64,000 nucleotides of DNA from Candidatus Alkanophaga liquidiphilum (GTDB taxonomy: Archaea; Halobacteriota; Syntropharchaeia; Alkanophagales; B39-G2): contig JAPHEF010000001.1 in the NCBI GenBank assembly GCA_029259535.1, forward strand, positions 21,399-85,398, written 5' to 3'. A program made the translations under genes and the position numbers. Shown here piece after piece: positions 1,570 to 61,663 of this stretch. The notes under the pieces are model-generated. The model made no database searches and was not told the origin of the DNA. It saw only the letters and a program-made list of their open reading frames with translations. Within the stretch, counting starts at the first letter, position 1; every line of letters begins with the position of its first letter.

Positions 1570-2577
1570 ATGCAAGAGGATGAAATAGACCTTGAGCGTC
1601 TGGCTGAGAGCTTGCGGGATTTTGAGGGAGTGCAGCGGAAGAAGCCGATATATGATGTGGCAAGGCTTTTTGGGGACGCCGAGTATGTTGGCGGGCGCAC
1701 GGTGATGGGCTTTGGGGACGACGCCGCCGTGCTCGAGCTCGACGATGAGCGTTACGTGCTGCTTGCAATAGATGGTATTTGGGGGCGGCTGTTGGACGCC
1801 GACCCGTGGTGGGCAGGTTACTGTGCGGTGCTCGTGAACGTGAACGATATTGCGGCGATGGGCGGCGTGCCGGTGGCTATGGTGAACATGGCGGCGACGC
1901 AGAGCCGTGGCATTTGCGGCGAGCTCATCCGAGGCATGCGGGACGGCGTTCGGAAGTTCGGCGTGCCGATGGTCGGCGGACACATGCACCCTGACACGCC
2001 CTACGACTCTCTTGACGTCGCAATCGTCGGCGTAGTGAAAAAAGGTTGCGTCCTGCTTTCAAACGGAGCGAAGCCCGGCGACGCCCTCGTTGTTGGCATC
2101 GACGTGCATGGACGAATTTACCCGAAGTTCCCACTCGCATGGGATAGCACGACGCTCCGCTCCGCCGCAGAGGTGAGGAAGCAGCGGCTCTGCATGGCAG
2201 AGGTCGGCGAGAAATGCCTCGCAACCGCAGCAAAGGACATCAGCAACCCCGGAACTATCGGAAGCATCGGCATGCTCCTCGAAACCTCGGACGTCGGCGG
2301 CGTCGTTGACCTCAGGGCGATTCCAAGGGCTGAGAGCGTGCCGCTTGAACATTGGTTGAAAATGTATCCGGGCACCGGCTTCATACTCTCGACCGAGAGC
2401 GGAAACGACGCAGAGAAGTGCATAGAGATTTTCGAGGCTGCTGATGTGCGGGCAGCAGTTGTGGGAGAAGTTGACGGCAGTAAAAAGTTGAAAATATGCA
2501 ACGGCAACGACGAGGCGACCGTGTTCGACTTCGATAAGGAGATTATCACGGGTATAAAGAAGCCTGCGAGGCGGTAG
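1570..2577 (+). CDS. PurM-like (AIR synthase-related) ATP-binding protein; resembles the methanogen-marker-2 type
   Basis: GDDAAVL...IDGIW...NVNDIAAMGG motifs match the PurM/ThiL/HypE superfamily N-domain. Length is 335 aa. The stop codon is 1 nt before the start of the next gene. Confidence 0.65.
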   Translation: MQEDEIDLERLAESLRDFEGVQRKKPIYDVARLFGDAEYVGGRTVMGFGDDAAVLELDDERYVLLAIDGIWGRLLDADPWWAGYCAVLVNVNDIAAMGGVPVAMVNMAATQSRGICGELIRGMRDGVRKFGVPMVGGHMHPDTPYDSLDVAIVGVVKKGCVLLSNGAKPGDALVVGIDVHGRIYPKFPLAWDSTTLRSAAEVRKQRLCMAEVGEKCLATAAKDISNPGTIGSIGMLLETSDVGGVVDLRAIPRAESVPLEHWLKMYPGTGFILSTESGNDAEKCIEIFEAADVRAAVVGEVDGSKKLKICNGNDEATVFDFDKEIITGIKKPARR

Positions 2578-2578
2578 A

Positions 2579-4054
2579 ATGGCGTCGCTGATATATGCAA
2601 AGGATATACCCGAGGCTTACGCGCTGGCAAACAACGAGATACTGGTGAGGGGCGTGGAAGCGGCGTCGGAGCGGGGCAATGTCAAATTTATCAACGACCT
2701 GCTCGTCGTGGTGGAGCGACCGGAAGTGGCGCTCGCCGAAGGCTCGCCGCACGCCTCCCACTTCTCACTTCTTGCAGAGACGCCAAACGAAGTTTGGAGG
2801 ATAGGAGGAGTCACCGGCGTCTTCGAGCGTGAAGAGACTTATGCCGACCGCTTCAGAAAACCCTTAGACCAGATAGGCAAAGGCGTGGAACTAATAAGGA
2901 GGAAGCCGTATTCGAGGAGGTTTTGCGTGAGCGTCGCCCGCCCTTGGGACGTGCTGAGCAGGACTCCGCCCGCTCTCATGGAAATTTACGTGCAGGTTTT
3001 GGAGGCTGCCGACGCGGACGCCGTTGAGCAGGAGGACGGCGGAGGACGCAGACGGGAAGAGCGGAAAGAAGTGCACGTCACCGGCTTTTTCAGGAGCGTT
3101 GACGTTTTCAATTACTTAAATCTGAACCTCAACGGGCTGTGCGAGCTTCAGGAGCTTATTTGCAGGGAAACCGGCTACGAGAAAGGAAGCATCGCTGCCC
3201 ATCTCGTGAATGCCCACTACTACCTCAGGAACGAGCGGCAGGTAGAAAAGGTCACCAGCAGTGCGGAGGCGAGAGCTGCTACTAGGAAAAGTGAGAGAGA
3301 AGCGGTGCGGCTCGGCGGGTTAATAAAGACGGAGCATCTGCCGTCAGGCTGGCGTGAGACTCTTGAGCTCATTTACCGACAAGGACTGCAGACGGAGACT
3401 GAGTGGGGCGAGGTTTTCGAGAGAAAGCGGCGGGCAAAGTTCGCTCACAGGCTTCTTTTAGAAATAGAGCGCCCGTCGGAGGACATGGAGGACGATAAGG
3501 CGCCGTTCACAAGGAAATATCTGGAGGAATATGCGTTGCGTTACGTGCTCGGCACGACAAATTTGCCGGCGACGGAATCCGAAATCCTCTACGAAGAGGG
3601 CGAAGCCTACACCTACGCTTCGAGGGCGAGGTATGAGCCCGCCGACATGGGATTCTTCGAGCTTAAAAAGCCTGTAGACCAACTTTATCACGCCATAGAA
3701 CTTCTTAGGAAGGACAAGAGGACGAGGCGTGCCACAATCGTCATATCGAGACCGTGGGACATTTTGAGTGAAGATCCAGCGTGTTTAAGGGGCTACGTGT
3801 TCCATGCAGATCCGCAAGACCCCGAAGCTCTGAGGATAACGCTGTTCATGCGTTCTAACGACGCCTACGGAGCGACTCTCGCAAACCAGTTTGCGTTCAC
3901 GAGGCTTGCGGAGTTCGTCGCCGCGAAGACGGGCTTCGAGTCCGTGAAATTGACGTTACTGGCGGCGAACATGCACATTTATGAGGACGCTTTTGAATTT
4001 GTTGAAGGCTTGTTGAAGCCGAAGATGCCGTCGTTCGGAGAGTTTTTTAGTTAA
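2579..4054 (+). CDS. Tandem-duplicated thymidylate synthase (ThyA)-fold protein, fused pseudo-dimer
   Basis: The 491 aa protein is two ~245 aa ThyA-like halves. Both halves carry the phosphate-binding RR..W(D/P) motif (RRFCVSVARPWD and RRATIVISRPWD). Both carry the RS.D...N-like segment (RSVDVFNYLNLN and RSNDAYGATLANQF). Only the second half keeps the nucleophile context P-x-C (DPACL); the first has PPAL. Confidence 0.6.
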   Translation: MASLIYAKDIPEAYALANNEILVRGVEAASERGNVKFINDLLVVVERPEVALAEGSPHASHFSLLAETPNEVWRIGGVTGVFEREETYADRFRKPLDQIGKGVELIRRKPYSRRFCVSVARPWDVLSRTPPALMEIYVQVLEAADADAVEQEDGGGRRREERKEVHVTGFFRSVDVFNYLNLNLNGLCELQELICRETGYEKGSIAAHLVNAHYYLRNERQVEKVTSSAEARAATRKSEREAVRLGGLIKTEHLPSGWRETLELIYRQGLQTETEWGEVFERKRRAKFAHRLLLEIERPSEDMEDDKAPFTRKYLEEYALRYVLGTTNLPATESEILYEEGEAYTYASRARYEPADMGFFELKKPVDQLYHAIELLRKDKRTRRATIVISRPWDILSEDPACLRGYVFHADPQDPEALRITLFMRSNDAYGATLANQFAFTRLAEFVAAKTGFESVKLTLLAANMHIYEDAFEFVEGLLKPKMPSFGEFFS

Positions 4055-20777: not shown

Positions 20778-22007
20778 CTATGCAAGGCGGCGCCGCAGGT
20801 AATCCTCGACGACGAACGCTGCGAGGTTTTCGGGCTTTGCAAAGAAGACTCTACCGAGGCTCTCTCGTGCGAGCATTCTTGCGAGCCTTCTGAGGTGTGG
20901 TTTGTCGTCAAGCATGATGATGTCGAGCGAGATGTTTTCATCCCGGTATTTTGACGCCTCCCGCAGAACTCCTTTCACCGCACGCCTGAACCCGACGTAA
21001 ACGCCATCTTCGGTGTTAGGCTCGGAGTCCGTCAGCAAATATGCATGTTTTTCGCCACTTTCCCTGTGAGCGGCACGCCTGAAGGCGCTCATGCCCTCTG
21101 CCATGCCCGTATTGCCGCCAGCTCGCATCCGCACGAGCTCCCACGCTGGGATTTCCGTCGCAAATTCCGAAAACACGAAAATCTTGAGCGTGTCGGAGTG
21201 CTTTCGCATGAGTTCAGAAAGGGCTAAAGACGCCTCGATGGCAGCCATCATCTTCCTGTTGTAGTTCATCGAGCCGCTCTTGTCGATTATCAAGCCCGCG
21301 AAGACCTTTCTCTTGTGGGAAGTTTTGTGGACTATGAAGTCCTCTTCCCTCAGCTCCCGCAGGGAAAAATCCCGATGCATGGCATTGAGCAGCGTCTCTT
21401 CGATGGAAACGAGCTCGTAGTCATCACCGAACTCGTAGGGTCTTAAAGAGGTAGAGAGCTTCGAGCCGTGCCGCCCCGGCGGCGTCGGCATGCCGACGGC
21501 GCCGAAAACGCCACTGCGTCGCTCAAGCGCATCTTTCACTATGCGGCGGGCGAGTTTTCTTGCCCCTTTTGGTGTGATGCTCACGATGTCGCCTTCGATG
21601 CGTATGTAGCCCTTCTCTTCGAGGTCCTTTAGAACCCGCTCTACGTCCTCCCTTTTTATCCCGTAGTCCCAGATCAGCGAGGTTATCCTCTTTTCCCTCT
21701 TCCGCCGTTCTCTATCCTCCCTTATGCCCTCTACAAGCTCTTCAACTGACGCCCCTTCCATAATCTTGTCGATTACTGTGTAGGAAACTTCCTCGTCATA
21801 CTCCTTCAGCTCCTCCCTGCGTCTTTCTTTTTCTTCGTCCACCTCTTGCAGCCGTTCCGCCGCCACCTCCTCCGCCCGCCGTCGCATCACGTCATACTCG
21901 TGTATTCGCTGCGCTATCTCTTCTATGCTCCTCTGCGCCCCCCCCGCCATTTCTCTTAAAAGTTCAACCTCCTCAAGCACGTCCGCGGTGCAGTAGCGCA
22001 TCCTCAT
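20778..22007 (-). CDS. von Willebrand factor A (VWA) domain protein with N-terminal charged coiled-coil and winged-helix segment
   Basis: The MIDAS motif IIDKSGSMN is followed by conserved T and D positions. The N-terminal ~120 aa are E/R/K-rich. A wHTH-like segment (LKDLEEKGYIRIEGD) is present. Confidence 0.6.
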   Translation of the reverse strand: MRMRYCTADVLEEVELLREMAGGAQRSIEEIAQRIHEYDVMRRRAEEVAAERLQEVDEEKERRREELKEYDEEVSYTVIDKIMEGASVEELVEGIREDRERRKREKRITSLIWDYGIKREDVERVLKDLEEKGYIRIEGDIVSITPKGARKLARRIVKDALERRSGVFGAVGMPTPPGRHGSKLSTSLRPYEFGDDYELVSIEETLLNAMHRDFSLRELREEDFIVHKTSHKRKVFAGLIIDKSGSMNYNRKMMAAIEASLALSELMRKHSDTLKIFVFSEFATEIPAWELVRMRAGGNTGMAEGMSAFRRAAHRESGEKHAYLLTDSEPNTEDGVYVGFRRAVKGVLREASKYRDENISLDIIMLDDKPHLRRLARMLARESLGRVFFAKPENLAAFVVEDYLRRRLA

Positions 22008-22895: not shown

Positions 22896-24575
22896 ATGCC
22901 CGGGCGTGCAGAAGAGATTTGGATTGAGAAATACCGCCCTAAGACGCTCGACGAGATTGTAGGGCAGGAGGAAATCGTCAGAAACCTCAAGTCCTACGTT
23001 AAAGCGGGAAACATGCCGCATCTCATCTTTTCAGGACCCGCAGGCGTCGGGAAGACGGCAGCGGCAGTAGCGCTCGCCAGGGAGTTTTTCGGCGACGCCT
23101 ACGAAGAGAACTTCACCGAATTAAATGCATCGGTGACGCCTGAGACCGTCTTAGTGCTGCGTGCCGGCGGCAATATAACGAGTTTGAGTTTCAAGGAGCT
23201 TGACAAGCTGATTTTTGGAGATGACAAGGAAGAAGAATATGCAATATTACAAGGGGTCGAAGTCCTCTCGGTGGCAGATTACAAAATCAAATTCATGCCC
23301 GTCTCGGCGGTTGCAAGGCACAAAGCCGAACGTATTTTGAGAATAAAGCACGAGGGCGGGGAAATAAGCGTCACCCCTGACCATTCTTTAATCGTAATCA
23401 CTGAGAGCGGAGCTCTCGCTTCAAAACCCGCCGCAGAAGTGGAAACTGGCTCGTTTCTGATCTCCTTCTGCGATGGCGGCGGCAAGCTCCCCGCAGAACC
23501 CCTCTTGAATTTCCTCAGGAACGCAAACGCTGTAAGTTGGCATTTGAGCAACGTATGCAGCGCCGCCGACACCATTGAGAAATCGAAGATGTTGGGTGCC
23601 ATTAGGTCGGTTAACGCTAAGGAACTACACGAGGGAGAACAAAAGACCTTTGAGACGCTTAGGAAGCTTGCAAGCTCTAAGCTTCACGTCTTAAAAGTCA
23701 AGGACGTGAAAGAGATGAGCTACGACGGCTGGGTTTACGACGTGGGCGTCCCACGCACCGAGATGTTTTGGGGTTTCGCCGCTAACGGCAGAGTCACGTC
23801 TGTGATGGCGCCGCCCGTTTTGCTGCATAATTCAGACGAACGGGGCATAGATGTCGTGCGCAACAACATAAAGAATTTTGCGAGGATGATGGCCGTCGGC
23901 GGGAAGTTTAAGATAATTTTCCTTGACGAGGCTGACGCTCTCACCGACGCCGCCCAGTCCGCCTTAAGAAGGACGATGGAGCGCTACTCCGCAACGTGCA
24001 GGTTCATCTTCAGCTGCAACTACTCTTCAAAGATAATAGAGCCGATACAGTCGAGGTGCGCAGTTTATCGATTCAAGGCACTCCCCTATGACGCCATAAA
24101 GAAAAGGCTTCTCTACATTGCAAAGCAGGAACGCCTTAAGATTTCGGAGGAGGTCATAAAGGCGATATATGACGTTGCGGGTGGCGACATGCGACGAGCG
24201 ATAAATGCGCTGCAGAGCGCCGCCGCAGTGAGCAAGGAAATAACGCCAGAAATCATATACAATATCACGGCGACGCCGAGTCCCGAGGTGGTGGAGGCGC
24301 TGATAAGAAAAGCGTTATATGAAGATTTCTTTGAAGCTCTTGAGATGCTTAACACGCTTCTGGACGAGAAGGGCGTGGCGCCCGACGAGTTGCTTACACA
24401 GATGCATAAAACACTTTTGAATATGGAAATACCACCCGAAAAGAAGGTTTATTTGATAGACAGGATAGGAGAAGTGGATTTTAGGATTGCGGAGGGGGCG
24501 AACGAGCGAATTCAGCTTGAGGGGCTGCTCGCATTCTTTCACCTTTATGGAGGGCAGCGAGCTGGGGGCGTTTGA
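22896..24575 (+). CDS. rfcS: Replication factor C small subunit containing an in-frame intein
   Basis: The exteins give the canonical RFC small subunit. Walker A GPAGVGKT precedes ELNA|(intein)|SDERGIDVVR. The downstream RFC boxes follow (DEAD-like FLDEAD, SRC). Extein length is ~325 aa. Confidence 0.85.
   Translation: MPGRAEEIWIEKYRPKTLDEIVGQEEIVRNLKSYVKAGNMPHLIFSGPAGVGKTAAAVALAREFFGDAYEENFTELNASVTPETVLVLRAGGNITSLSFKELDKLIFGDDKEEEYAILQGVEVLSVADYKIKFMPVSAVARHKAERILRIKHEGGEISVTPDHSLIVITESGALASKPAAEVETGSFLISFCDGGGKLPAEPLLNFLRNANAVSWHLSNVCSAADTIEKSKMLGAIRSVNAKELHEGEQKTFETLRKLASSKLHVLKVKDVKEMSYDGWVYDVGVPRTEMFWGFAANGRVTSVMAPPVLLHNSDERGIDVVRNNIKNFARMMAVGGKFKIIFLDEADALTDAAQSALRRTMERYSATCRFIFSCNYSSKIIEPIQSRCAVYRFKALPYDAIKKRLLYIAKQERLKISEEVIKAIYDVAGGDMRRAINALQSAAAVSKEITPEIIYNITATPSPEVVEALIRKALYEDFFEALEMLNTLLDEKGVAPDELLTQMHKTLLNMEIPPEKKVYLIDRIGEVDFRIAEGANERIQLEGLLAFFHLYGGQRAGGV
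23130..23831 (+). other. Intein (~234 aa) inserted in RFC small subunit between ELNA and SDERGID
   Basis: The intein begins with Ser (block A SVTPETVLVL) and has block B TPDH. It ends ...VLLHN followed by the Ser +1 extein residue. No clear LAGLIDADG motif was seen. Confidence 0.7.
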
Positions 24576-27441: not shown

Positions 27442-28170
27442 TCAGCTCGCACGCCGCCCTATAGGCACTACGTATAACGGTGCGTGGTCATCGGGCATGC
27501 TTAGGAGCTCACGCACGTCGTCATCGAGGAACGCACCGACGACCGTCATCCCGAGACCGAGAGCCGTCGCCTGCAAATACAAGTTTTGTGCAGCGTGCCC
27601 CGCCTCCATGAAGACGTAACGCTCGCCTCGCTCCCCGTATTTCGCCTCCGTCCTCTCGAAAACTGCCGCAATCACAATGCTGACCGGCGCCGCTCGCACC
27701 CACGTCTGCCCGACGGCGGCTGCACAAAGCTCGTCACGCACGTCCCCGCTCTTAACCTTAGATAAACTGTGCTCGTGCGGCGAATAATGGAAGACGCCGG
27801 CGACAAGCTCGGAAACGCCGCTCTCGCCGACCGCCACATATATCTCAAGCGGGTATGTCATACCGGCGCTCGGCACCGCCCTTTTTCCAGCTTCAGGGTC
27901 AGTGATGCCCTGTGCTGCCCAGAGCAACTGCGAGAGCTCCTGAAGCGTCAAGGGCTCGTTTGCAAATCTACGAACTGACCGGCGCAGCGCAATTGTTTCC
28001 TCCACCGACATCTCGCCGGTGGTGCGTGGTGATGGCAGTTCTATTTCGTCAGGCGACGGCGTAACGTCGCTGACGGCGCGCATCTCTAAAATCACTGCGA
28101 CGCTGGCAAGCGCTGCGAGCACCGCTATCGTTACAAGGAGCATCCATTTCCGCCCAGCTCTCAACGGCAT
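27442..28170 (-). CDS. Nitroreductase-fold (SagB-type dehydrogenase-like) protein with N-terminal membrane anchor
   Basis: An N-terminal TM helix is followed by a nitroreductase-like core (PSAGMTYPLEIYV, FMEAGHAAQNLYLQATALGLG). Confidence 0.55.
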   Translation of the reverse strand: MPLRAGRKWMLLVTIAVLAALASVAVILEMRAVSDVTPSPDEIELPSPRTTGEMSVEETIALRRSVRRFANEPLTLQELSQLLWAAQGITDPEAGKRAVPSAGMTYPLEIYVAVGESGVSELVAGVFHYSPHEHSLSKVKSGDVRDELCAAAVGQTWVRAAPVSIVIAAVFERTEAKYGERGERYVFMEAGHAAQNLYLQATALGLGMTVVGAFLDDDVRELLSMPDDHAPLYVVPIGRRAS

Positions 28171-41713: not shown

Positions 41714-43447
41714 GTGCTCAATTATGAGTTAAGGATGAATGTCATCATACTTGACGGCTATGTGGACGAGCCAACATGCCTGGGAGTGCCACCATATATT
41801 AGTCCTTATGTGCGTTACGCCGCCGGCGCCGCTCTGAAAACTGCCAAAGAGCTTTGTTTAGACTTAAAACTTTTATACTTCACGATCGACCAGCTACGGA
41901 GCGGCGTGGGCTTTAAAGAGATTATAAAAGCTGACTTGCTTGTAGTCATTTGCGGAACGGCGGTTCCGGGCAAGTATTTAGGTGGGACGCCAGCGTCCTC
42001 CTCAGAGCTTGCGAGGCTATTGAGCGGCGTGGAGCGTCCCGTGAAAGTGCTGGGCGGTCCTGCTGCGAAGTTCGGCTTTGGGACAGGGGGCGGGCGGCGT
42101 GCTGCCGCCGTTCCAGAGGGCGTGTTCGACATCGTTGCGACCGGCGACGTCGAGTTCGTCATTTCGCAACTCATTGCAGAGCGCCTGAGCGTGGAGCGTG
42201 TGGCGCCCGAAGAACATCGTGAAAGCGTCTCACAAATAAGAAATTTTGCTATTTACGGCGCCGAAATAGTAAGGCAGCACCCGAACTTTCCGCACATCAT
42301 CGCAGAGCTTGAGACGTATCGGGGCTGCGCCCGCTCGCTCGTCGGTGGCTGTTCCTTTTGCGTGGAGCCGAACAAGGGGTTACCAGATTTCAGACCCGTA
42401 GAGGACGTCGTTGACGAAGTCGCAGCGCTTTACAAAGTGGGCGTGCGGCACTTCCGCTTTGGGAGCCAGCCATGTTTGTTTTCATATATGGCAGAAGGCG
42501 TCGGCGAGCTTGAGTTCCCTAAGCCCAACTCTGAGGCGTTGGAGCGTCTTTACAGGGGAATAAGAGCCGTGGCGCCAAAGCTCAGAACGCTGCACATGGA
42601 CAACGCAAATCCCGGAACGCTCGCTGCATATCCCGAAGAGTGTCGAAGAATTGCAAAAATCATCGTGAAATACCACACAGCGGGAGATGTCGTCGCTCTC
42701 GGCGTTGAAAGCGCTGACCCCGAGGTCGTTCGTAGAAACAACCTTAAAGCAATGCCTGAGGACTGCATGAAAGCGATTGAGTTGCTGAATGAGGTTGGCG
42801 CACGAAGGGGTGAGAATGGGCTTCCTGAGCTTTTACCTGGTGTTAATTTCGTTTTTGGACTGCTTGGCGAGACGAAAAAAACTTATGAGCTTAACTATGA
42901 GTTTTTACGTGAGGTTTTGGAGAGGAGGTTGCTGCTACGCCGCATAAACCTGCGTCAGGTGATGATTTTCCCGACGACGCGGATGGCGAAGGTCGGCGAT
43001 AGGATAATGCGGCGGCACAAGCGCCTGTTCAGGAGCTTCAAGCGGCGGGTGCGTGAGGAGATAGACCGGGAGATGCTAAAGCGGGTCGTGCCTCGTGGCG
43101 TCGTCCTGCGGGACGTGCTGACTGAAATGCATGAAGGTAAAACGACCTTCGGGCGGCAACTCGGCACTTACCCCCTCCTCGTGGGCATTCCTGGCGTTTA
43201 CGAGCTGCGCCGCTTCCTCGATGTGAAAGTTGTAGATTACGGCTTCAGGTCGATCACCGCCGTTCCGTTCCCGCTGGACGTGAATACCGCACCAAAAGAG
43301 ACTTTAATGGCGCTACCCGGCGTCGGCGAGCGCAGGGCGGCTGCTATCGAGCGGAAAAGACCGTTTAAAAGCGTAGAGGATTTTGTGAGCGCCTTTGATG
43401 ACAAAGCCGTAGGTGAAAAGCTGCGGGAATACGTGAAGGTGCTTTAA
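41714..43447 (+). CDS. Radical-SAM-like protein with N-terminal Rossmann-like domain, non-canonical Cys motif and C-terminal helix-hairpin-helix
   Basis: The Cys triad is GCARSLVGGCSFC (Cx7Cx2C) rather than Cx3Cx2C. The C-terminal HhH is LMALPGVGERRAAAIERKRPFKSVEDF. Confidence 0.45.
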   Translation: MLNYELRMNVIILDGYVDEPTCLGVPPYISPYVRYAAGAALKTAKELCLDLKLLYFTIDQLRSGVGFKEIIKADLLVVICGTAVPGKYLGGTPASSSELARLLSGVERPVKVLGGPAAKFGFGTGGGRRAAAVPEGVFDIVATGDVEFVISQLIAERLSVERVAPEEHRESVSQIRNFAIYGAEIVRQHPNFPHIIAELETYRGCARSLVGGCSFCVEPNKGLPDFRPVEDVVDEVAALYKVGVRHFRFGSQPCLFSYMAEGVGELEFPKPNSEALERLYRGIRAVAPKLRTLHMDNANPGTLAAYPEECRRIAKIIVKYHTAGDVVALGVESADPEVVRRNNLKAMPEDCMKAIELLNEVGARRGENGLPELLPGVNFVFGLLGETKKTYELNYEFLREVLERRLLLRRINLRQVMIFPTTRMAKVGDRIMRRHKRLFRSFKRRVREEIDREMLKRVVPRGVVLRDVLTEMHEGKTTFGRQLGTYPLLVGIPGVYELRRFLDVKVVDYGFRSITAVPFPLDVNTAPKETLMALPGVGERRAAAIERKRPFKSVEDFVSAFDDKAVGEKLREYVKVL

Positions 43448-52193: not shown

Positions 52194-54056
52194 ATGACCG
52201 ATGAGAGGGTCAGCTACCACGAAAGCATAAACGAGCAGTATCGGAGGGTGAAGGCTGACGGCGTGACGAACGTCATCGACCGTTTCAACGCCCAAGGGGC
52301 GAGATGCAAGTTCGGCGAGCGAGGTCTCTGCTGCCAGCTTTGCAGCATGGGTCCCTGCCGGATATCTGGAAAAGCCCCTTACGGCGCCTGCGGGATCGAC
52401 GCCGCGGGAATGGCGGTTCGGAATTTTGTCCATAAGAACTTATTGGGCACGATGGCTTACGCCCACCATGCTGTCGAAGCAGCAAAGACGTTAAAAGCCA
52501 CAGCCGAGGGAAAGACTCCTTTTGAGATCAAGGACGAAGAGAAGCTGAGATGGCTCGCTTCCCAGCTGGGAATTGATGGTGACGACGTTCAAGAACTCGC
52601 AAGGAAAGTTGCGGACTTCATACTTGAGGACATCAGCTCGCACGAGCCGAGCAAGCTTGTTGAGATATTTGCGCCCGAAAAGAGGAAGGAGCTCTGGCAG
52701 AAACTCGGAATCTTTCCGAGAGGGGTTTTCTACGAGCTTCTCGTCACAGGCACATCGGCGATGACGAATGTGGACTCCGACCATGTCTCTCTAGCGAAGA
52801 AGAGCATGCGGATGGGCATTGCAACATGTATGGCGGCGCAACTCTCCTTAGAGCTGGTCCAAGACATCCTCTTCGGCACGCCGATGCCGCACGAGAGCGA
52901 AGCCGACTTGGGCATCCTCGACCCCGAATACGTGAATATCGCCGTTGACGGCCACGAGCCCTTCGTCGCAGCCGCTCTAATTAAGCTCGCCGAGAGCGAA
53001 GAGGTTCAAAAGAGGGCGAGAGATGCCGGCGCAAAGGGTCTCCGTATTGTTGGCTTCATTGAAACCGGTCAGGAAATCCTGCAGCGCTCCGATAGCCCAG
53101 TCTTTGTGGGCATTGTTGGAAACTGGATCGTTCAAGAGTTTGCCCTTGCGACGGGCGCCGTCGATGTTTTTGCGGCGGACGTGAATTGCGCACTGCCGTC
53201 CCTTCCTGAATATCAGAAATACGGCGTCAGAATAGTGCCCGTGAGCGAGCTTGTGAGGCTCAAAGGTATCGACAAATGCTTAAATTACGAGCCTGATGCT
53301 GCTGAGGAGGTTGCGAGAGAGGTCATCGCCATCGCCATCGAAAACTTCAAGCAGAGGGGTAAAGCGGGCGTCCACAAAGTCGAAAAGAAGCAAAAGATCG
53401 TTGTAGGCTTCTCGCCAGAGGCGATTCTCAAGGCTCTCGGTGGGAAGCTCGACGCCCTGCTCGAAGCGATAAAAAGCGGCGACGTGAAGGGGGTTGTAGC
53501 CCTTGTGAGCTGCACGACGCTGAAGAATGGGCCGCATGACGTGAACACTGTAACTGTAGCAAGAGAATTGATAAAAAGGAACATTCTCGTGCTTTCGATG
53601 GGTTGCGGGAACGCCGCCCTGCAGCAGGCGGGCTTGACCTCGATGGACACTCTTGAACTCGCAGGCGAGCGCCTGAGGGCGGTCTGCGAAAAGCTCGGAA
53701 TTCCACCCGTTCTCAGTTTCGGGACATGCACCGACACCGGAAGATGTGCTTACTTGGTGAGGCTCGTCGCCGACGCCCTTGGCGTGGACGTTCCCGACCT
53801 GCCGGTGGCGGTCACCGCTCCCGAATACATGGAGCAGAAAGCCACGATCGATGCGGTGTTCGCAGTCGCATACGGGCTTACGACACACGTCTCGCCCGTT
53901 CCGCCGATAACCGGTAGCGAGGAAGCCGTTAAGCTTTTCACCGAGGACGTTGAGAAGCTCACCGGCGGAAAAGTAATAGTTGAGGAGGAGCCCGTGAAGG
54001 CGGCGGAGCTTCTGGAAAAAGTCATTGAAGAGAAGAGGGCGAAGCTGGGCATCTAA
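52194..54056 (+). CDS. cooS: Anaerobic carbon-monoxide dehydrogenase catalytic subunit
   Basis: N-terminal Cys clusters CKFGERGLCCQLCSMGPCRI ... GACGID are present. Conserved Ni-Fe-S cluster C ligands are present throughout. Length is 620 aa. Confidence 0.9.
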   Translation: MTDERVSYHESINEQYRRVKADGVTNVIDRFNAQGARCKFGERGLCCQLCSMGPCRISGKAPYGACGIDAAGMAVRNFVHKNLLGTMAYAHHAVEAAKTLKATAEGKTPFEIKDEEKLRWLASQLGIDGDDVQELARKVADFILEDISSHEPSKLVEIFAPEKRKELWQKLGIFPRGVFYELLVTGTSAMTNVDSDHVSLAKKSMRMGIATCMAAQLSLELVQDILFGTPMPHESEADLGILDPEYVNIAVDGHEPFVAAALIKLAESEEVQKRARDAGAKGLRIVGFIETGQEILQRSDSPVFVGIVGNWIVQEFALATGAVDVFAADVNCALPSLPEYQKYGVRIVPVSELVRLKGIDKCLNYEPDAAEEVAREVIAIAIENFKQRGKAGVHKVEKKQKIVVGFSPEAILKALGGKLDALLEAIKSGDVKGVVALVSCTTLKNGPHDVNTVTVARELIKRNILVLSMGCGNAALQQAGLTSMDTLELAGERLRAVCEKLGIPPVLSFGTCTDTGRCAYLVRLVADALGVDVPDLPVAVTAPEYMEQKATIDAVFAVAYGLTTHVSPVPPITGSEEAVKLFTEDVEKLTGGKVIVEEEPVKAAELLEKVIEEKRAKLGI

Positions 54057-54472: not shown

Positions 54473-55393
54473 ATGCAAAGTGTGGAGCTTTTAGTAGTGG
54501 GTGCCGGACCTGCAGGGCTAACTGCTGGGCTCTACGGCGTGCGTTCGGAGCTTAAGACGCTCGTGCTCGAAGCCGCCGCCCCCGGAGGGCAAATGGCGAC
54601 CGCCCCGAAGATCGAAAACTATCCCGGCTTCCCCGACGGCATCCCGGGCATGGAGCTCGCAGAACGCATGGAAGCGCAAGCAAGGAACGCAGGCGTCGAG
54701 ATTCGTAACTTTGAAAGTGTGGAAAGTGTCAGGAAGGAAGGGGGCGTCTTCGTCGTGGAGACCTCCGAAAACAGGTATGAGAGCGTTGCTGTCATAGTCG
54801 CTTCCGGGCTTTCGCACAAGAAGCTCGGCGTGCCGGGCGAAGCTGAGCTCCTAGGACGTGGCGTCTCGTATTGCGCAACGTGCGACGCCCCGCTCTTTAA
54901 GGGCAAAAGGGTGGCGGTCGTCGGCGATGGGACGGCGGCGGCGAATGCCGCGCTCACGCTCAGCGAGCTTGCTGACGTCAAAATGCTGGTCGGCGGCGAC
55001 GCCGTGCGAACTGCCGAAAAAATCATAGAGCGTCGCTTGAAAAAAAGCGGAGTGGAAATTCTGAAAAACGTTAAGGTCTTGGAAATTCTCGGCAAGAACC
55101 TCGTAAGCGGCGTGCGCGTGCTGAACACAGAAACTGGCGAGGAGTTCCTGCTGGAAATGGATGGCATTTTCATCGAAGTCGGGAAAGTGCCGAGCACCGG
55201 GTTTCTAAGGCTTGACGTGCAGCTCGACGAAAAAGGCTACATAATCGTGGATTCAAAGCAGCAAACCAGCGTCGAGGGCTTGTTCGCCGCCGGCGACGTC
55301 ACGTCTGGCGGCGTGAAGCAGGTGGTGACGGCGGTGGCGCAAGGGGCAATCGCCGCTCTCAATGCTTATGAATACGTGCGGAGTTGGGGCTAA
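54473..55393 (+). CDS. trxB: Thioredoxin-reductase-like FAD/NAD(P) flavoprotein
   Basis: The FAD motif is LLVVGAGPAGLTAG. The redox-active disulfide is CATCDAPLF. The NAD(P) motif is VAVVGDGTAA. The C-terminal motif is GDVTSGG. Confidence 0.8.
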   Translation: MQSVELLVVGAGPAGLTAGLYGVRSELKTLVLEAAAPGGQMATAPKIENYPGFPDGIPGMELAERMEAQARNAGVEIRNFESVESVRKEGGVFVVETSENRYESVAVIVASGLSHKKLGVPGEAELLGRGVSYCATCDAPLFKGKRVAVVGDGTAAANAALTLSELADVKMLVGGDAVRTAEKIIERRLKKSGVEILKNVKVLEILGKNLVSGVRVLNTETGEEFLLEMDGIFIEVGKVPSTGFLRLDVQLDEKGYIIVDSKQQTSVEGLFAAGDVTSGGVKQVVTAVAQGAIAALNAYEYVRSWG

Positions 55394-55405
55394 CATCTAC
55401 AAAAA

Positions 55406-56200
55406 ATGGAACTTGAGTTCTTATACAGCGGCGATTTTGGCAACGTCGTCATCGGCAACCTCGTGAATTATTCGACGTTCTGCCGAGCATGTGGGGAAGC
55501 GTGCGTAGAATGCCGAGTGGGCTGGAGCCATGCAGATAGCATCACGGCTGCCGTGAGCCTGCCGCCGCCCGAGAGCCTGCCCCATTTCTTAGACGCTCCC
55601 GAGAGCTTCTTGCTCGACTTAATCCCGGCAGACGTGCTCATAGCGATAAACATCCATCCTGACGTGCTCTTAAGTTTACCCAAACGTCTTGAGGAGCTTG
55701 GCGTTTGCGCTTTGATAGTTCCTGCTGAGAGCCCAAGGGAGCTGCCCGTGGGCGTCAGGCAGCAGCTAAAGGACGCTTGCGAGATGCATGGTGTCGAATA
55801 CGCCTTTCCGAAGCCGTTCTGCGCCTTAGACCCCAGGGACCCTGTAGTCAGCCGCTTTAAAACCGTGAGGCGCTTCGTCGAAGACTTTGGCGTCGGCAAG
55901 CCGGAACTGCGGATCTCGTTAAAAAGCGGAGCTATAAGCAGCGCTGAGGTCCTGCGGAGCGCCCCCTGCGGCTCTACATGGTTTGTCGCTCGGAAAATAA
56001 TAGGATTTAGGGCGCCGACCGACGCCGACGACGCTGCATTGCGCGAGCTGTTTGACGCGATTTCAAAAGCGCATCATTCTTACCCTTGCACGGCGAGCAT
56101 GGAGCTCGACAAGGAGCTCGGAGATACTGTCCTTCACAAAGCTGGATATCTGATTAGAGAAGCTATCCTTAAGGCCTTAAACGTAGAAATGCCCCTTTGA
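55406..56200 (+). CDS. Hypothetical Cys-rich protein (compact CxxCx3CxxC motif; possibly DUF166-like)
   Basis: An N-terminal FCRACGEACVEC cluster is present. No other recognised motifs were found. This is the last gene of the cooS-linked, same-strand run. Confidence 0.4.
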   Translation: MELEFLYSGDFGNVVIGNLVNYSTFCRACGEACVECRVGWSHADSITAAVSLPPPESLPHFLDAPESFLLDLIPADVLIAINIHPDVLLSLPKRLEELGVCALIVPAESPRELPVGVRQQLKDACEMHGVEYAFPKPFCALDPRDPVVSRFKTVRRFVEDFGVGKPELRISLKSGAISSAEVLRSAPCGSTWFVARKIIGFRAPTDADDAALRELFDAISKAHHSYPCTASMELDKELGDTVLHKAGYLIREAILKALNVEMPL

Positions 56201-56593: not shown

Positions 56594-57535
56594 ATGAATA
56601 AGTTAATAACCGATATTGGCAACAGTATTGAAGCTGCTACGAGATTCGTTAAAGGCTATATAATATCTATAGGCTCTGTCACCAATATTTTCAGTGCTAT
56701 AGAAAACAACATACAAACGGTTGACGACATCGCTGAGGAATATGGCTATAGGAACAAGAGGCTCCTAAAGTTGTATTTGGATATTTTGTGCTCGTATTCC
56801 ATATTGAAAAAGGAAAATTCGAAATACTTCTTGGTCGATGGTGTGAATATAAGATTGGAGAAGCGAGATTTCATGCTCGATAAGATGAAAGAAGATCTCA
56901 TAAGCTTTTTTATGTCTTTGATAAACGTTTTTCCCCATCTGCTCATCGACCCGAACAACCCACTTGCCACCACCGACTTCGAAAGAGATGCTAATATCTG
57001 GAGCATTTGGTTGGAAAATGATTGGTTCAAGTCAGTAAGGTGGGCTATAACAGAAATAGGAAGAATAGGCAAGAGAGATTACATCTTGGACATGGGCAGC
57101 GGCTCCGTTTCCCCGCTATACTTTGCAGAAATCGTTGGTGAGAATGGGAGGGTTACAGGGCTGGACAAGTCCAAAAAAATGGTGGAAATCGCAAGGACGA
57201 AGATAGAAAACCGGGGGTATTCATGGGTCGAGATGGAGCACTGCGATATCGAAAACGATGTGGGGTTGGACGAAGAATACGACATCGTTATTCTTTCGAT
57301 GGTATTAGAATACGTGCATAATATGGAAAAAGTTATCGAAAATGCATACAACGCCCTGAAGGACGGCGGTAGGCTGATAATATTTAAAATGCCAGACAAT
57401 CCCATCATAAATTTTACAGAAGCACTAATACCGCAATTTGTTAAGCTGCGGACCACGAGAGAGATAAAAGAAGTTTTGACAAAAGTCATAGTCAAAGAGT
57501 ATGGAGACCTACTTATAGTTGCTCATAAGTATTAA
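56594..57535 (+). CDS. Class I SAM-dependent methyltransferase with N-terminal winged-helix/dimerisation domain (O-methyltransferase-like)
   Basis: Motif I is ILDMGSGSVSPL, with an acidic residue after beta2 (VTGLD) and motif IV (DIVILSMV). The N-terminal ~170 aa are a helical/wHTH domain. GC is ~38%. Confidence 0.7.
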   Translation: MNKLITDIGNSIEAATRFVKGYIISIGSVTNIFSAIENNIQTVDDIAEEYGYRNKRLLKLYLDILCSYSILKKENSKYFLVDGVNIRLEKRDFMLDKMKEDLISFFMSLINVFPHLLIDPNNPLATTDFERDANIWSIWLENDWFKSVRWAITEIGRIGKRDYILDMGSGSVSPLYFAEIVGENGRVTGLDKSKKMVEIARTKIENRGYSWVEMEHCDIENDVGLDEEYDIVILSMVLEYVHNMEKVIENAYNALKDGGRLIIFKMPDNPIINFTEALIPQFVKLRTTREIKEVLTKVIVKEYGDLLIVAHKY

Positions 57536-58451: not shown

Positions 58452-59504
58452 ATGCCAGAGGAGATGAGTCATAGGGAGAGGTTGTTTGCGGCGTTCGAGC
58501 GGAGTTCTTATGACCGGGCGCCGTGTCCGGGGATTACGCAGACCGGGACGGTCGAGCTGATGGAGGCGAGCGGCGCTTTCTTCCCGGAGGTGCATTGGGA
58601 CGCTGAGAAGATGGCGAAGCTGGCGTGGGCGGCTTTCGAACATGCCGGACTCGAAGGCATCCGTGTCCCGTTCATCATTTACACCGAAGCGCTCGCCGTC
58701 GGCACTGAGCTTTTCAAATGGGAGAAGGACAACATGCCGATGGTGAAAAAATACCCATTCAGTAGCGTCGAGGAGGCTGCCGAGAAGTTAGAAGTCCCGA
58801 ATCCGAGAGAAGCTGAGAGCATGCGGGTTGTGCTGGACGCCATCGAGCTCTTAAAGCCAAAATGCGATGCTGAGAAGCTACCGCTGACCGGGCACGCCGT
58901 TGGCGCATTCCTCTTAGCCTTTGGCGTCGTGGATTTCATGAACGCCATGATAGCATTCAAGAAGAGCCCTGAAAGCTTTAGGGAAATCTGGGAGAAGACA
59001 AAAGAGCTTGTAATAACGTGGTCGGAGGCAATGATTGACGCCGGCGCCGACGTCATTTTTTACAACTGCGCAGCGCTCGGCAACTTCAGACCCGACGACT
59101 ACGAAAAACACGGGTTTTCTATTGACCGGGAGTGCATACGGAAAATAAAGGAAAAGGGGGCTTATGTGCTGGTCCACGTCTGTTCGGACATAAGGCCGGT
59201 GCTGGACCACGTGGTGAAGTTAGGGGCGGATGCTATTTCCGTGTCGGAAGTGGTGAAGATGGAGGATATTAGGAAGCGGGTCGGCGACGACGTCACGCTG
59301 ATGGGGAACGTGAACCAAGTATTCACGCTGATAAAGAGGGGGCCTGAGGAGGTCATGGCGGAGGCGAAGGCGTGTATAGAGGCGGGGACGGACATTCTGG
59401 CGCCGGGGTGCGGTTTCGGGACGAAGACGCCGCTCGCAAACATGCGTGCGATGGTGGATGCGGCTAAGAAATATGGGCACCTCGCCAGACTCGCTGGGAA
59501 ATAA
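58452..59504 (+). CDS. MtaA/MtbA-like methylcobamide methyltransferase (MT2; uroporphyrinogen-decarboxylase fold, Zn-dependent), paralog 1
   Basis: The 350 aa protein has URO-D-like N-terminal RERLFAA...RAPCPGITQTGTVELMEA. Zn-ligand contexts are VHVCSD (H-x-C) and APGCGFG. Confidence 0.75.
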   Translation: MPEEMSHRERLFAAFERSSYDRAPCPGITQTGTVELMEASGAFFPEVHWDAEKMAKLAWAAFEHAGLEGIRVPFIIYTEALAVGTELFKWEKDNMPMVKKYPFSSVEEAAEKLEVPNPREAESMRVVLDAIELLKPKCDAEKLPLTGHAVGAFLLAFGVVDFMNAMIAFKKSPESFREIWEKTKELVITWSEAMIDAGADVIFYNCAALGNFRPDDYEKHGFSIDRECIRKIKEKGAYVLVHVCSDIRPVLDHVVKLGADAISVSEVVKMEDIRKRVGDDVTLMGNVNQVFTLIKRGPEEVMAEAKACIEAGTDILAPGCGFGTKTPLANMRAMVDAAKKYGHLARLAGK

Positions 59505-59546
59505 TGCGGAAGAATTAAAACAGCGTCAGAATAAACAGGTGGTTGT

Positions 59547-60605
59547 ATGCCAGAGGAGATGAGTCATAGGGAGAGGTTGTTTGCGGCGTTCGAGCGGAGT
59601 TCTTATGACCGGGCGCCGTGTCCGGGGATTACGCAGACCGGGACGGTCGAGCTGATGGAGGCGAGCGGCGCTTTCTTCCCGGAGGTGCATTGGGACGCTG
59701 AGAAGATGGCGAGGCTGGCGTGGGCGGCTTTCGAACATGCCGGACTCGAAGGCGTCCGTGTCCCGTTCATCATTTACACCGAAGCGCTCGCCGTCGGTGT
59801 CGAGCTTGAGAAGTGGGCGAAGGACAACATGCCGATGGTCAAGAAGTTCGCGTTCGACAGTGTTGAGGAAATAGCCGAGAGGATGGAGATACCAGACCCG
59901 CAGACGGCGCCAAGCATGAAAGTCGTGCTGGATGCCATTAAGATTTTAAAGCCGAAGTGCGACGATGCGAAGCTTCCGATAACCTGCCACGTCGGCAGTG
60001 CGTTCGTTGGCGCCTTCCTCGGCATCGTGGACATGATGAAAGCCATGATAACATTCAAGAAGAACCCTGAGGTCTTCGGCGGCGTCTTCGAGAAGACGAA
60101 GCAATTGGCACTGACGTGGGCGGAAGCCGCTATCGAGGCGGGGAGCGATGTTATTTTCTACAACTGTGCTCCGCTTGGCAACTTTAGACCCACCGACTAT
60201 GAGAAATATGGGCTTCCTGTGGACAAGGAGTGCGTAAAGAAAATAAAGGACATGGGCGCCTACGTCGTCGTGCACGTCTGTTCGGACATAAGGCCGGTGC
60301 TGGACCACGTGGTGAAGTTAGGGGCGGATGCCATTTCCGTGTCGGAAGTGGTGAAGATGGAAGATATTAGGAAGCGGGTCGGCGACGACGTCACGCTGAT
60401 GGGGAACGTGAACCAAGTATTCACGCTGATAAAGAGGGGGCCTGAGGAGGTCATGGCGGAGGCGAAGGCGTGTATAGAGGCGGGGACGGACATTCTGGCG
60501 CCGGGGTGCGGTTTCGGGACGAAGACGCCGCTCGCAAACATGCGTGCGATGGTCGAGGCGGCTAAGAAATATGGGCACCTCGCCAGACTCGCTTCGGGGG
60601 CGTAA
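59547..60605 (+). CDS. MtaA/MtbA-like methylcobamide methyltransferase (MT2), paralog 2
   Basis: The first ~330 nt and last ~340 nt are near-identical at the DNA level to paralog 1. The central ~380 nt are divergent. Confidence 0.75.
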   Translation: MPEEMSHRERLFAAFERSSYDRAPCPGITQTGTVELMEASGAFFPEVHWDAEKMARLAWAAFEHAGLEGVRVPFIIYTEALAVGVELEKWAKDNMPMVKKFAFDSVEEIAERMEIPDPQTAPSMKVVLDAIKILKPKCDDAKLPITCHVGSAFVGAFLGIVDMMKAMITFKKNPEVFGGVFEKTKQLALTWAEAAIEAGSDVIFYNCAPLGNFRPTDYEKYGLPVDKECVKKIKDMGAYVVVHVCSDIRPVLDHVVKLGADAISVSEVVKMEDIRKRVGDDVTLMGNVNQVFTLIKRGPEEVMAEAKACIEAGTDILAPGCGFGTKTPLANMRAMVEAAKKYGHLARLASGA

Positions 60606-60607
60606 AA

Positions 60608-61663
60608 ATGGGAGATGAGATGAATTATAGGGAGCGGCTATTTGCCGCTTTAGACCAGAATCCGGTGGACCGGGCGCCGTGTCCGGGGATTACGCAGACC
60701 GGGACGGTCGAGCTGATGGAGGCGAGCGGCGCCTTCTTCCCGGAGGCGCATAAGGACGCTGAGAAGATGGCGAAGTTGGCGTGGGCGGCTTTCGAACATG
60801 CCGGACTCGAAGGCATCAGAATTCCTTTTATTGTTTATACCGAGGCGAGTGCGCTTGGCACAAGGCTTTACAAGTGGAAGAAAGACACGCAGCCCATGGT
60901 TGAAGAAGTTCCAATAAAGAGCCCAGAGGACATAGACAAGCTGGAAATTCCAGACCCGAGAGATGCGGAGTTGCCGTCTGTGGTGTTAAAGGCGATTGAG
61001 ATTTTGAAGCCGAAGTGCAACGCCGCAAAGCTGCCGCTGACTGTCATGGTGATAGCGCCGGCGACGATGTCGCTCGGTGGTGCTTTGGTTGACATAATGA
61101 AGGTGATGATGTGGGTGAAGACGAACATAGATGACACGGTGAAGCTTGCCAAAAAAGTAAGCGAGATGAGTCTCGCATTCGCTGAGGCAGTCGTGGACGC
61201 CGGCGCCGACGTCATCTTCTACAACGTTGGCATTTCCAGCAGGGTGAAAGAGTATCCTGAGGTCTTCTTCCCCATAGACAAAGAGGTCGCAGGCAAAATA
61301 CGGAAGATGGGCGTTTACATGGTTGCGCACCACTGCTCAGATCCAAGGCGGATAATAAACGAGCTTGCGAGTCTCGGCGCTCACGGATTGTCCATCCCGG
61401 AGCCGCAGATGATTCCCGTGCGGGAGGCACGTGAGCTCGTCGGCGACCGTGTGGCGCTCGTCGGCGGACTGGACCAGTTGCACACCCTGATAAAGAAGAG
61501 CCCAGAGGATGTGATGGAACAAGCAAAGACGGCGATAGAAGAGGGTATAGACGTGCTGGCGCCGGGGTGCGGTTTCGGGACGAAGACGCCGCTCGCAAAC
61601 ATGCGTGCGATGGTGGAGGCGGCTAAGAAATATGGGCACCTCGCCAGACTCGCTAAGAAGTAG
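60608..61663 (+). CDS. MtaA/MtbA-like methylcobamide methyltransferase (MT2), paralog 3 (more divergent)
   Basis: It shares identical ~80-nt (60661-60740) and ~100-nt (61558-61655) terminal blocks with paralogs 1 and 2. HHCSD and APGCGFG zinc contexts are retained. It starts 2 nt after the paralog 2 stop. Confidence 0.75.
   Translation: MGDEMNYRERLFAALDQNPVDRAPCPGITQTGTVELMEASGAFFPEAHKDAEKMAKLAWAAFEHAGLEGIRIPFIVYTEASALGTRLYKWKKDTQPMVEEVPIKSPEDIDKLEIPDPRDAELPSVVLKAIEILKPKCNAAKLPLTVMVIAPATMSLGGALVDIMKVMMWVKTNIDDTVKLAKKVSEMSLAFAEAVVDAGADVIFYNVGISSRVKEYPEVFFPIDKEVAGKIRKMGVYMVAHHCSDPRRIINELASLGAHGLSIPEPQMIPVREARELVGDRVALVGGLDQLHTLIKKSPEDVMEQAKTAIEEGIDVLAPGCGFGTKTPLANMRAMVEAAKKYGHLARLAKK

Follow-up and report, generated by a model that had tools for sequence, protein, structure and literature searches.

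The 64,000-nt window analysed here (positions 21,399 to 85,398 of contig JAPHEF010000001.1, assembly GCA_029259535.1, Candidatus Alkanophaga liquidiphilum) carries at 2579–4054 a gene for a tandem (fused) archaeal-type thymidylate synthase (TS) of 491 aa, in which two ThyA-fold domains are joined in one chain. We give a probability of roughly 0.7 to the reading that this protein is a thymidylate synthase built as a covalent, asymmetric pseudo-dimer with one catalytic site, and that its pairing with the gene immediately upstream, which encodes methanogenesis marker protein 2 (Mmp2; 1570–2577), is incidental. The two genes and all of their parts cited below lie on the plus strand. The single chain would go back to an ancient event in which a short archaeal-type ThyA domain was duplicated in tandem, and its two domains would pack like the subunits of the ThyA homodimer. 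The C-terminal domain would supply the nucleophile Cys402, the residues R425, S426, D428, N436, H466 and Y468 that bind deoxyuridine monophosphate (dUMP), and the Tyr94-like Y346, with the N-terminal domain giving R113 and R114 in trans to complete the phosphate site. The N-terminal pocket, having lost the nucleophile and in most members one trans-arginine as well, would be catalytically dead while remaining under constraint, perhaps for a structural role or for the binding of a nucleotide. The one-carbon (C1) donor would probably be a methylene-tetrahydromethanopterin-type pterin and the product probably deoxythymidine monophosphate (dTMP).

Two ThyA domains in one chain

The 491-aa protein matches PF00303 (Thymidylat_synt) in two stretches, with a score of 88.2 bits. 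When the chain was cut at residue 241 and the parts were searched separately, residues 1–241 scored 42.2 bits and residues 242–491 scored 49.2 bits, both above the gathering score of 24.3 bits, and the two halves can be aligned with one another from end to end at 24% identity (E=1e-16). A preliminary description, made from the sequence alone, had reported two ThyA-like halves in this chain and asked whether the first might be an unrelated domain; on these profile scores each half has the ThyA fold. The N-terminal domain (residues 1–228; 2579–3262), in which the nucleophile is lost, is the more divergent and the presumed non-catalytic partner. It is followed by a linker (residues 229–246; 3263–3316) that is variable in both length and sequence in the family alignment (A1), and then by the C-terminal domain, the presumed catalytic half (residues 247–491; 3317–4051). 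A beta-hairpin of the N-terminal half also bears a lineage-specific charged insertion, LEAADADAVEQEDGGGRRREERKEV (2999–3073), which is found at full length only in Alkanophaga-type sequences in alignment A1; three other aligned sequences (P0003, P0004 and P0012) have shorter charged insertions at the same site.

The closest single-domain relatives are the archaeal ThyAs of ~200–236 aa described by TIGR03283 (thy_syn_methano), with which the C-terminal half aligns end to end (96.1 bits, model positions 2–198 of 201) and shares the motifs Y-T-Y-x-x-R, RR, P-A/P-C, F-R-S-x-D and H-x-Y. The tandem form differs from them in that the domain is duplicated and fused, with one copy lacking the cysteine, and in that the whole protein scores 145.1 bits, under the equivalog cut-off of 174.55 bits; by this profile it is a divergent relative of TIGR03283 and not an equivalog member. 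Compared with the ThyAs of Escherichia coli and Lactobacillus casei (264–316 aa), the tandem domains have the same fold, but are only ~230–245 aa long and are missing much of the periphery that binds folate, and the chain consists of two non-identical domains with one nucleophile between them.

An AlphaFold2 model of the whole chain, built with a 30-sequence alignment, is confident and compact (mean pLDDT 90.8, pTM 0.92), with a dip in pLDDT to 64 in the linker and the lowest values, below 50, at residues 149–152 of the charged insertion. Two domains that tumbled independently would not be expected to give a pTM of 0.92, and the model thus fixes the position of each domain relative to the other. 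The N-terminal half modelled by itself (residues 1–235) reached a pLDDT of 91.3. Foldseek searches of the PDB returned 396 matches at E<=0.001; the whole model first found 9iqc and 9iqu, which are flavin-dependent deoxycytidine monophosphate (dCMP) hydroxylases, followed by MilA and then by many ThyAs, and the model of the N-terminal half retrieved the same list with TMq values of up to 0.70. For both models, the top 50 listed matches were all TS, MilA or dCMP hydroxylase structures. Together with the half-wise profile scores, these models support the earlier proposal of a tandem ThyA-fold pseudo-dimer.

When one genome was scanned for each GTDB species, 79 loci were identified, 76 of which encode the tandem form. 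The fusion is present as a single open reading frame of 412–491 aa in ~80 species-level genomes, which belong to Archaeoglobi, Methanocellales metagenome-assembled genomes (MAGs), Syntrophoarchaeum and Alkanophaga. The two-domain homologues span 412–493 aa and share 45–53% identity with the protein studied here in Syntropharchaeia (Syntrophoarchaeum, Alkanophaga) and the Methanocellales MAGs, and 31–38% in Archaeoglobi, among them the cultured Geoglobus acetivorans, G. ahangari and Archaeoglobus veneficus. When a library holding 1.84 billion cluster representatives was searched, only four clusters matched at E<=1e-30, and the three full-length ones among them (432–470 aa) are tandem; the next matches were single-domain archaeal ThyAs of 200–236 aa, aligned best to the C-terminal half. 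The N-terminal halves of all clades match one another ahead of any other sequence, and neither half is much closer than the other to the single-domain ThyAs of archaea, which suggests that the fusion arose once, by one ancient duplication and fusion.

A different ThyA-fold fusion was encountered outside the window in two proteins of ~491 aa (P0050 and P0192). In these, an N-terminal domain of ~170 aa, which by eye resembles MtrA (LIVCGEES..GH motif), is followed by a short ThyA-like domain with RR, PPC and FRSHD motifs and then by a C-terminal domain of ~100 aa. Several library representatives of ~470–500 aa have their match in the same position as these two proteins.

Active-site residues of the two halves

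Residues were counted in 76 distinct tandem sequences, with E. coli positions mapped by HMMER alignments and motif spacing. The presumed nucleophile, Cys402 (codon 3782–3784), aligns by HMMER with the TS catalytic cysteine (E. coli C146), stands in the same P-x-C context as in E. coli and L. casei ThyA, and is present in 76/76 sequences. The homologous position of the N-terminal half, A132 here (codon 2972–2974), is occupied by Ala in 65 sequences, by Ser in 10, by Thr in one and by Cys in none. The two contexts read DPAC402L in the second half and TPPA132L in the first. The earlier statement that only the second half retains the nucleophile holds across the 76 sequences.

In ThyA, a pair of arginines is donated across the subunit interface to the dUMP phosphate site of the partner. 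The N-terminal counterparts of this pair, R113 and R114 (codons 2915–2920; E. coli R126'/R127', aligned by HMMER with L. casei R178/R179), are both kept in 76/76 sequences and would be placed for such cross-interface action. In the C-terminal half, the R126' equivalent R383 is likewise found in all 76, and the R127' equivalent R384 is Asp in 61, Arg in 6 and Gln in 5. Each of the two pairs in this protein is followed by RPWD, and the preliminary description was correct for this sequence in stating that both halves keep the RR context; across the family the statement fails for the second half, where retention of both arginines is peculiar to the lineage of this protein. Because the arginine pair of a ThyA subunit acts on its partner's site, the residue pattern fits a single site composed of the C-terminal pocket and the N-terminal arginines, and the family-wide asymmetry, with Cys402 and R113/R114 kept and R384 mostly replaced by Asp, is what trans-acting arginines would be expected to leave.

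The remainder of the C-terminal pocket resembles the dUMP cradle of ThyA. The segment R425-S426-N427-D428...N436 (3851–3886) contains the equivalents of E. coli R166, S167, D169 and N177, presumed by homology to bind dUMP; R425, S426, D428 and N436 are invariant, and the R-to-N spacing of 11 residues is the same as in E. coli. The H207/Y209 equivalents H466/Y468 and the Y94 equivalent Y346 are also invariant. In this half, 49 of 240 positions are conserved in >=97% of sequences. Both halves are under purifying selection as judged from substitution rates, with dN/dS of ~0.05–0.14 for the N-terminal half and ~0.015–0.11 for the C-terminal half, the dN of the former usually being 1.5–3 times that of the latter.

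The N-terminal pocket may not be simply dead. Its equivalents of R166, S167, H207, Y209 and Y94 (R172, S173, H213, Y215 and Y88) are each present in 76/76 sequences, and D175 (D169 equivalent) and N183 (N177 equivalent) in 62/76 and 63/76, so that the RS.D segment of the substrate cleft does occur in both halves, as R172-S173-x-D175 and R425-S426-x-D428, just as had been claimed. The pocket is more complete in the clade of Syntropharchaeia and Methanocellales (n=11), which keeps R32 (the R21 equivalent), has Arg or Gln at R384, and has Ser at the nucleophile position in 9/11 members. These features, and the low dN/dS of the N-terminal half, could mean that both pockets are functional, the N-terminal one being an allosteric or regulatory nucleotide site or, in the Ser-bearing clade, a second site with weak catalytic activity. 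We consider this unlikely, as no N-terminal half has the cysteine and the second trans-arginine that this pocket would receive is replaced by Asp in 61/76 sequences. Furthermore, the conserved DKAPFT...YGEEYA...Y block of the C-terminal half is missing from the N-terminal half, whose mean column conservation is also lower (0.44 vs 0.68), and the conserved residues of the N-terminal pocket could be structural instead. A comparison of R32 with W276 at the R21 equivalent was not relied upon: the Trp for Arg at this position of the catalytic half, which would set it apart from ThyA, is alignment-dependent, and in Archaeoglobi an Arg stands one position earlier.

Parallels to the single-site pseudo-dimer favoured here are found in ThyA heterodimers engineered to have one functional site, and in ThyA's half-of-the-sites reactivity. 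In both the engineered and the tandem proteins, one subunit would carry the nucleophile and its partner would give the arginines in trans; the tandem form differs in being natural, covalent and ancient, and in being fixed across several archaeal orders.

Substrate and one-carbon donor

The sequence evidence favours dUMP as the substrate and a housekeeping role for the tandem protein, because Asn436 and Asp428 are invariant, because the distribution is broad and single-copy, and because some of the neighbouring genes belong to nucleotide metabolism. By published diagnostic rules, Asn at the N177 position is typical of enzymes that use dUMP and Asp is found there in cytosine enzymes (PMC13326640). 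The tandem protein resembles T4-type dCMP hydroxymethylase, MilA and AfhB (PDB 9iqu, 9iqc) in its compact TS fold (TMt 0.74–0.76); those enzymes, however, have Asp at N177, and the hydroxylases among them carry D169N.

Several observations argue against a conventional thymidylate synthase. The residue equivalent to L143, three positions before the catalytic cysteine, is D399 in this protein (codon 3773–3775) and not the hydrophobic residue expected for a methyl product; an acidic residue, Asp or Glu, stands there in 74/76 of the tandem ThyAs, and also in 32/46 of the short single-domain relatives from archaea. Among phage TS homologues, such a residue goes with hydroxymethyl or hydroxy products (PMC13326640), and the acidic residue is a further point of likeness to dCMP hydroxymethylase, MilA and AfhB. 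The score under the TIGR03283 cut-off points in the same direction. The biochemistry of single-domain archaeal ThyA is itself scarce (PMC9931769).

These observations, and the rank of flavin-dependent dCMP hydroxylases (9iqc, 9iqu) and MilA as the best structural matches, would also be accommodated if the protein were a TS-superfamily member that modifies pyrimidines at C5 in another way, such as a dUMP hydroxymethylase or an enzyme that resolves the exocyclic-methylene intermediate differently. Such an assignment appears improbable, as the invariant Asn436 is of the uracil type and the invariant Asp428 does not show the D169N change of 5-hydroxy-dCMP synthases. The broad, single-copy, housekeeping-like spread in Archaeoglobi under strong purifying selection also speaks against it, and an O2-dependent hydroxylase would be implausible in these anaerobes. 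The acidic residue, moreover, is common to the single-domain archaeal ThyAs, the type that co-occurs with methanogens and Archaeoglobus fulgidus and for which tetrahydromethanopterin is the assumed C1 donor (PMC5654409).

For a thymidylate synthase of the tandem type, a methylene-pterin is a plausible C1 donor. The acidic L143 residue and a probable methanopterin-type cofactor are two further differences from the ThyAs of E. coli and L. casei. Archaeal dTMP synthesis with tetrahydrosarcinapterin has been demonstrated only in cell extracts (PMC9931769). The type of TS varies within anaerobic methanotrophic archaea of group 1 (ANME-1), in which the ThyA-bearing subgroup (GoMg4, SA) corresponds to Methanoalium (Chadwick et al. 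2022). The presence of ThyA in place of ThyX in that subgroup was considered as a sign that the organism studied here has no ThyX; this argument was dropped, since the genus Methanoalium does not belong to the Alkanophagales.

A combination of these possibilities can also be envisaged, in which the N-terminal pocket, with its nearly complete set of dUMP-binding residues in the clade of Syntropharchaeia and Methanocellales, is an allosteric nucleotide site, the acidic L143 residue reflects a non-classical, methanopterin-linked way for short archaeal ThyAs to resolve the exocyclic-methylene intermediate, and the ATP-dependent Mmp2 might take part in Alkanophaga. This combination must be rated a long shot.

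The Mmp2 gene, gene neighbourhoods and the wider family

The gene upstream of the tandem ThyA encodes a 335-aa protein with the PurM/AIR-synthase fold and is predicted to use ATP. It contains AIRS and AIRS_C domains (PF00586, PF02769) and matches TIGR03267 (methanogenesis marker 2) over model positions 1–323 of 323 with 454.9 bits, well above the cut-off of 365 bits, so that the earlier assignment to a PurM-superfamily gene of the marker-2 type is now made firm. Homologues in ANME-1 share 64% identity with it. At the junction (2566–2581), the TAG stop of mmp2 (2575–2577) is separated by one nucleotide from the ATG of the ThyA gene at 2579 (TAG-A-ATG), and a Shine-Dalgarno-like GAGG lies ~10 nt ahead of this ATG; the open reading frames (ORFs) and the 1-nt spacing are as first described. 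The two genes are probably co-transcribed in Alkanophaga. The surroundings of the pair in the window are functionally mixed, with genes for an M50 protease, a CBS protein, a tubulin/FtsZ-family protein, TctA and a glycosyltransferase.

The preliminary description had gone further and suggested a two-gene module of the PurM-like protein and the double ThyA, serving an ATP-dependent modification of the C1 or pyrimidine type. The tight, same-strand junction with its GAGG would suit such a module, as would the persistence of the pair in Ca. Alkanophaga volatiphilum at 80–89% identity, where the Mmp2 is 89% identical and lies 4 nt from the ThyA. When Mmp2 was searched by tblastn against 84 tandem-ThyA loci, however, an adjacent orthologue was found in 2/84 only, namely this window and Ca. 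Alkanophaga volatiphilum, both of one lineage. In Methanocellales, the tandem ThyA is preceded by an isocitrate/isopropylmalate-dehydrogenase-family gene, other Syntropharchaeia have unrelated flanking genes, and no Mmp2 homologue was detected by tblastn in the flanks of the Archaeoglobi loci. Clustering of the neighbours gave no conserved ThyA partner, with no gene family present in more than 21/84 loci. Weak PurM-like tblastn matches upstream of some Archaeoglobaceae ThyA genes, which had seemed to favour the module, were not accepted as Mmp2, being by eye ~770-aa PurL-like proteins encoded one gene away on the opposite strand.

Elsewhere, Mmp2 is in other company. Its neighbours in ANME-1 and Methanoxibalbensis are a haloacid dehalogenase (HAD) hydrolase on one side and a CofH-like radical S-adenosylmethionine (SAM) gene on the other, without ThyA. 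In Methanomicrobiales it is clustered with DUF2102, DUF2111, DUF2112 and a BcrAD-type ATPase, again without ThyA, in agreement with the published clustering of mmp2 with methanogenesis marker proteins 3, 5, 6, 15 and 17 (PMC12978539). Given that adjacency to ThyA is confined to Alkanophaga, the module is very doubtful, and the pairing is probably, on this survey of gene order, a lineage-specific accident and not a functional unit.

The conserved HAD hydrolase–Mmp2–radical SAM trio, in which the last protein has a CofH_C domain, was observed at three loci of ANME-1 (Methanophagales) and Ca. Methanoxibalbensis (L087 3167–6152, L088 2452–5437 and L089 2958–6214), and may be a lead to the function of Mmp2. 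Among the neighbours with a role in nucleotide metabolism are a uracil permease and a uracil phosphoribosyltransferase (UPRTase) in Geoglobus, and, in some Archaeoglobaceae, proteins that by eye look like PurL and PurF. In Geoglobus acetivorans (L001 5749–10586), the tandem ThyA is flanked divergently by the uracil/xanthine permease and UPRTase genes, and convergently by a fusion of OMPdecase/HPS-like and RraA-like domains that is possibly of the formaldehyde-generating hexulose-phosphate-synthase type.

Several other features of the window were recorded. Three tandem paralogues of MtaA/CmuA-family methylcobamide:coenzyme M methyltransferases with the URO-D fold (58452–61663, +; NF004889, 264–278 bits) are preceded by a SAM-methyltransferase gene (56594–57535) in a patch of low GC content at 56–58 kb (0.425 vs ~0.53). 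A thioredoxin-reductase-like flavoprotein (TIGR01292, 338.3 bits, just below the cut-off), directly followed by a DUF166 protein (54473–56200, +), has a prismane/CO-dehydrogenase-family gene upstream of it (52194–54056). The window also encodes a replication factor C small subunit with an intein (22896–24575, +), in which PF14890 is located between the AAA N-terminus and the remainder, a SagB-type nitroreductase-family dehydrogenase (27442–28170, −; TIGR03605, 139 bits), and a radical SAM protein (41714–43447, +; PF04055) weakly similar to the B12-binding/radical SAM and methyl-coenzyme M reductase glutamine C-methyltransferase families.

The suspicion that the long gene is an assembly or frameshift artefact merging two adjacent thyA genes can be set aside as having next to no likelihood, as a single uninterrupted ORF was found at every locus with enough sequence, in ~80 independent assemblies that include the complete genomes of cultured Geoglobus and of Archaeoglobus veneficus, and as an identical 491-aa protein is present in a second assembly. 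That identical protein, deposited from a Ca. Alkanophagales MAG, is labelled 'hypothetical protein', and the homologues from Archaeoglobi carry the NCBI label 'thymidylate synthase'. The kind of enzyme is known and some of the genes are annotated as such. A description of a fused, duplicated or pseudo-dimeric archaeal ThyA, or of the tandem single-site architecture, was not found in searches of the open-access literature, an absence that is weak evidence.

Textbooks describe ThyA as an obligate homodimer, and its half-of-the-sites behaviour has been a matter of debate for decades. The family to which the Alkanophaga protein belongs would represent a natural and ancient covalently fused ThyA heterodimer, in which one site has the nucleophile and the other domain contributes mainly the trans-acting arginines. 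It may thus offer a ready-made means of testing whether one site is enough and what role falls to the second subunit. The family also matters for annotation, its genes being labelled 'hypothetical protein' or plain 'thymidylate synthase', and it bears on how Archaeoglobi and alkane-oxidising archaea make thymidylate and handle C1 units (methanopterin), a little-known part of their biochemistry.

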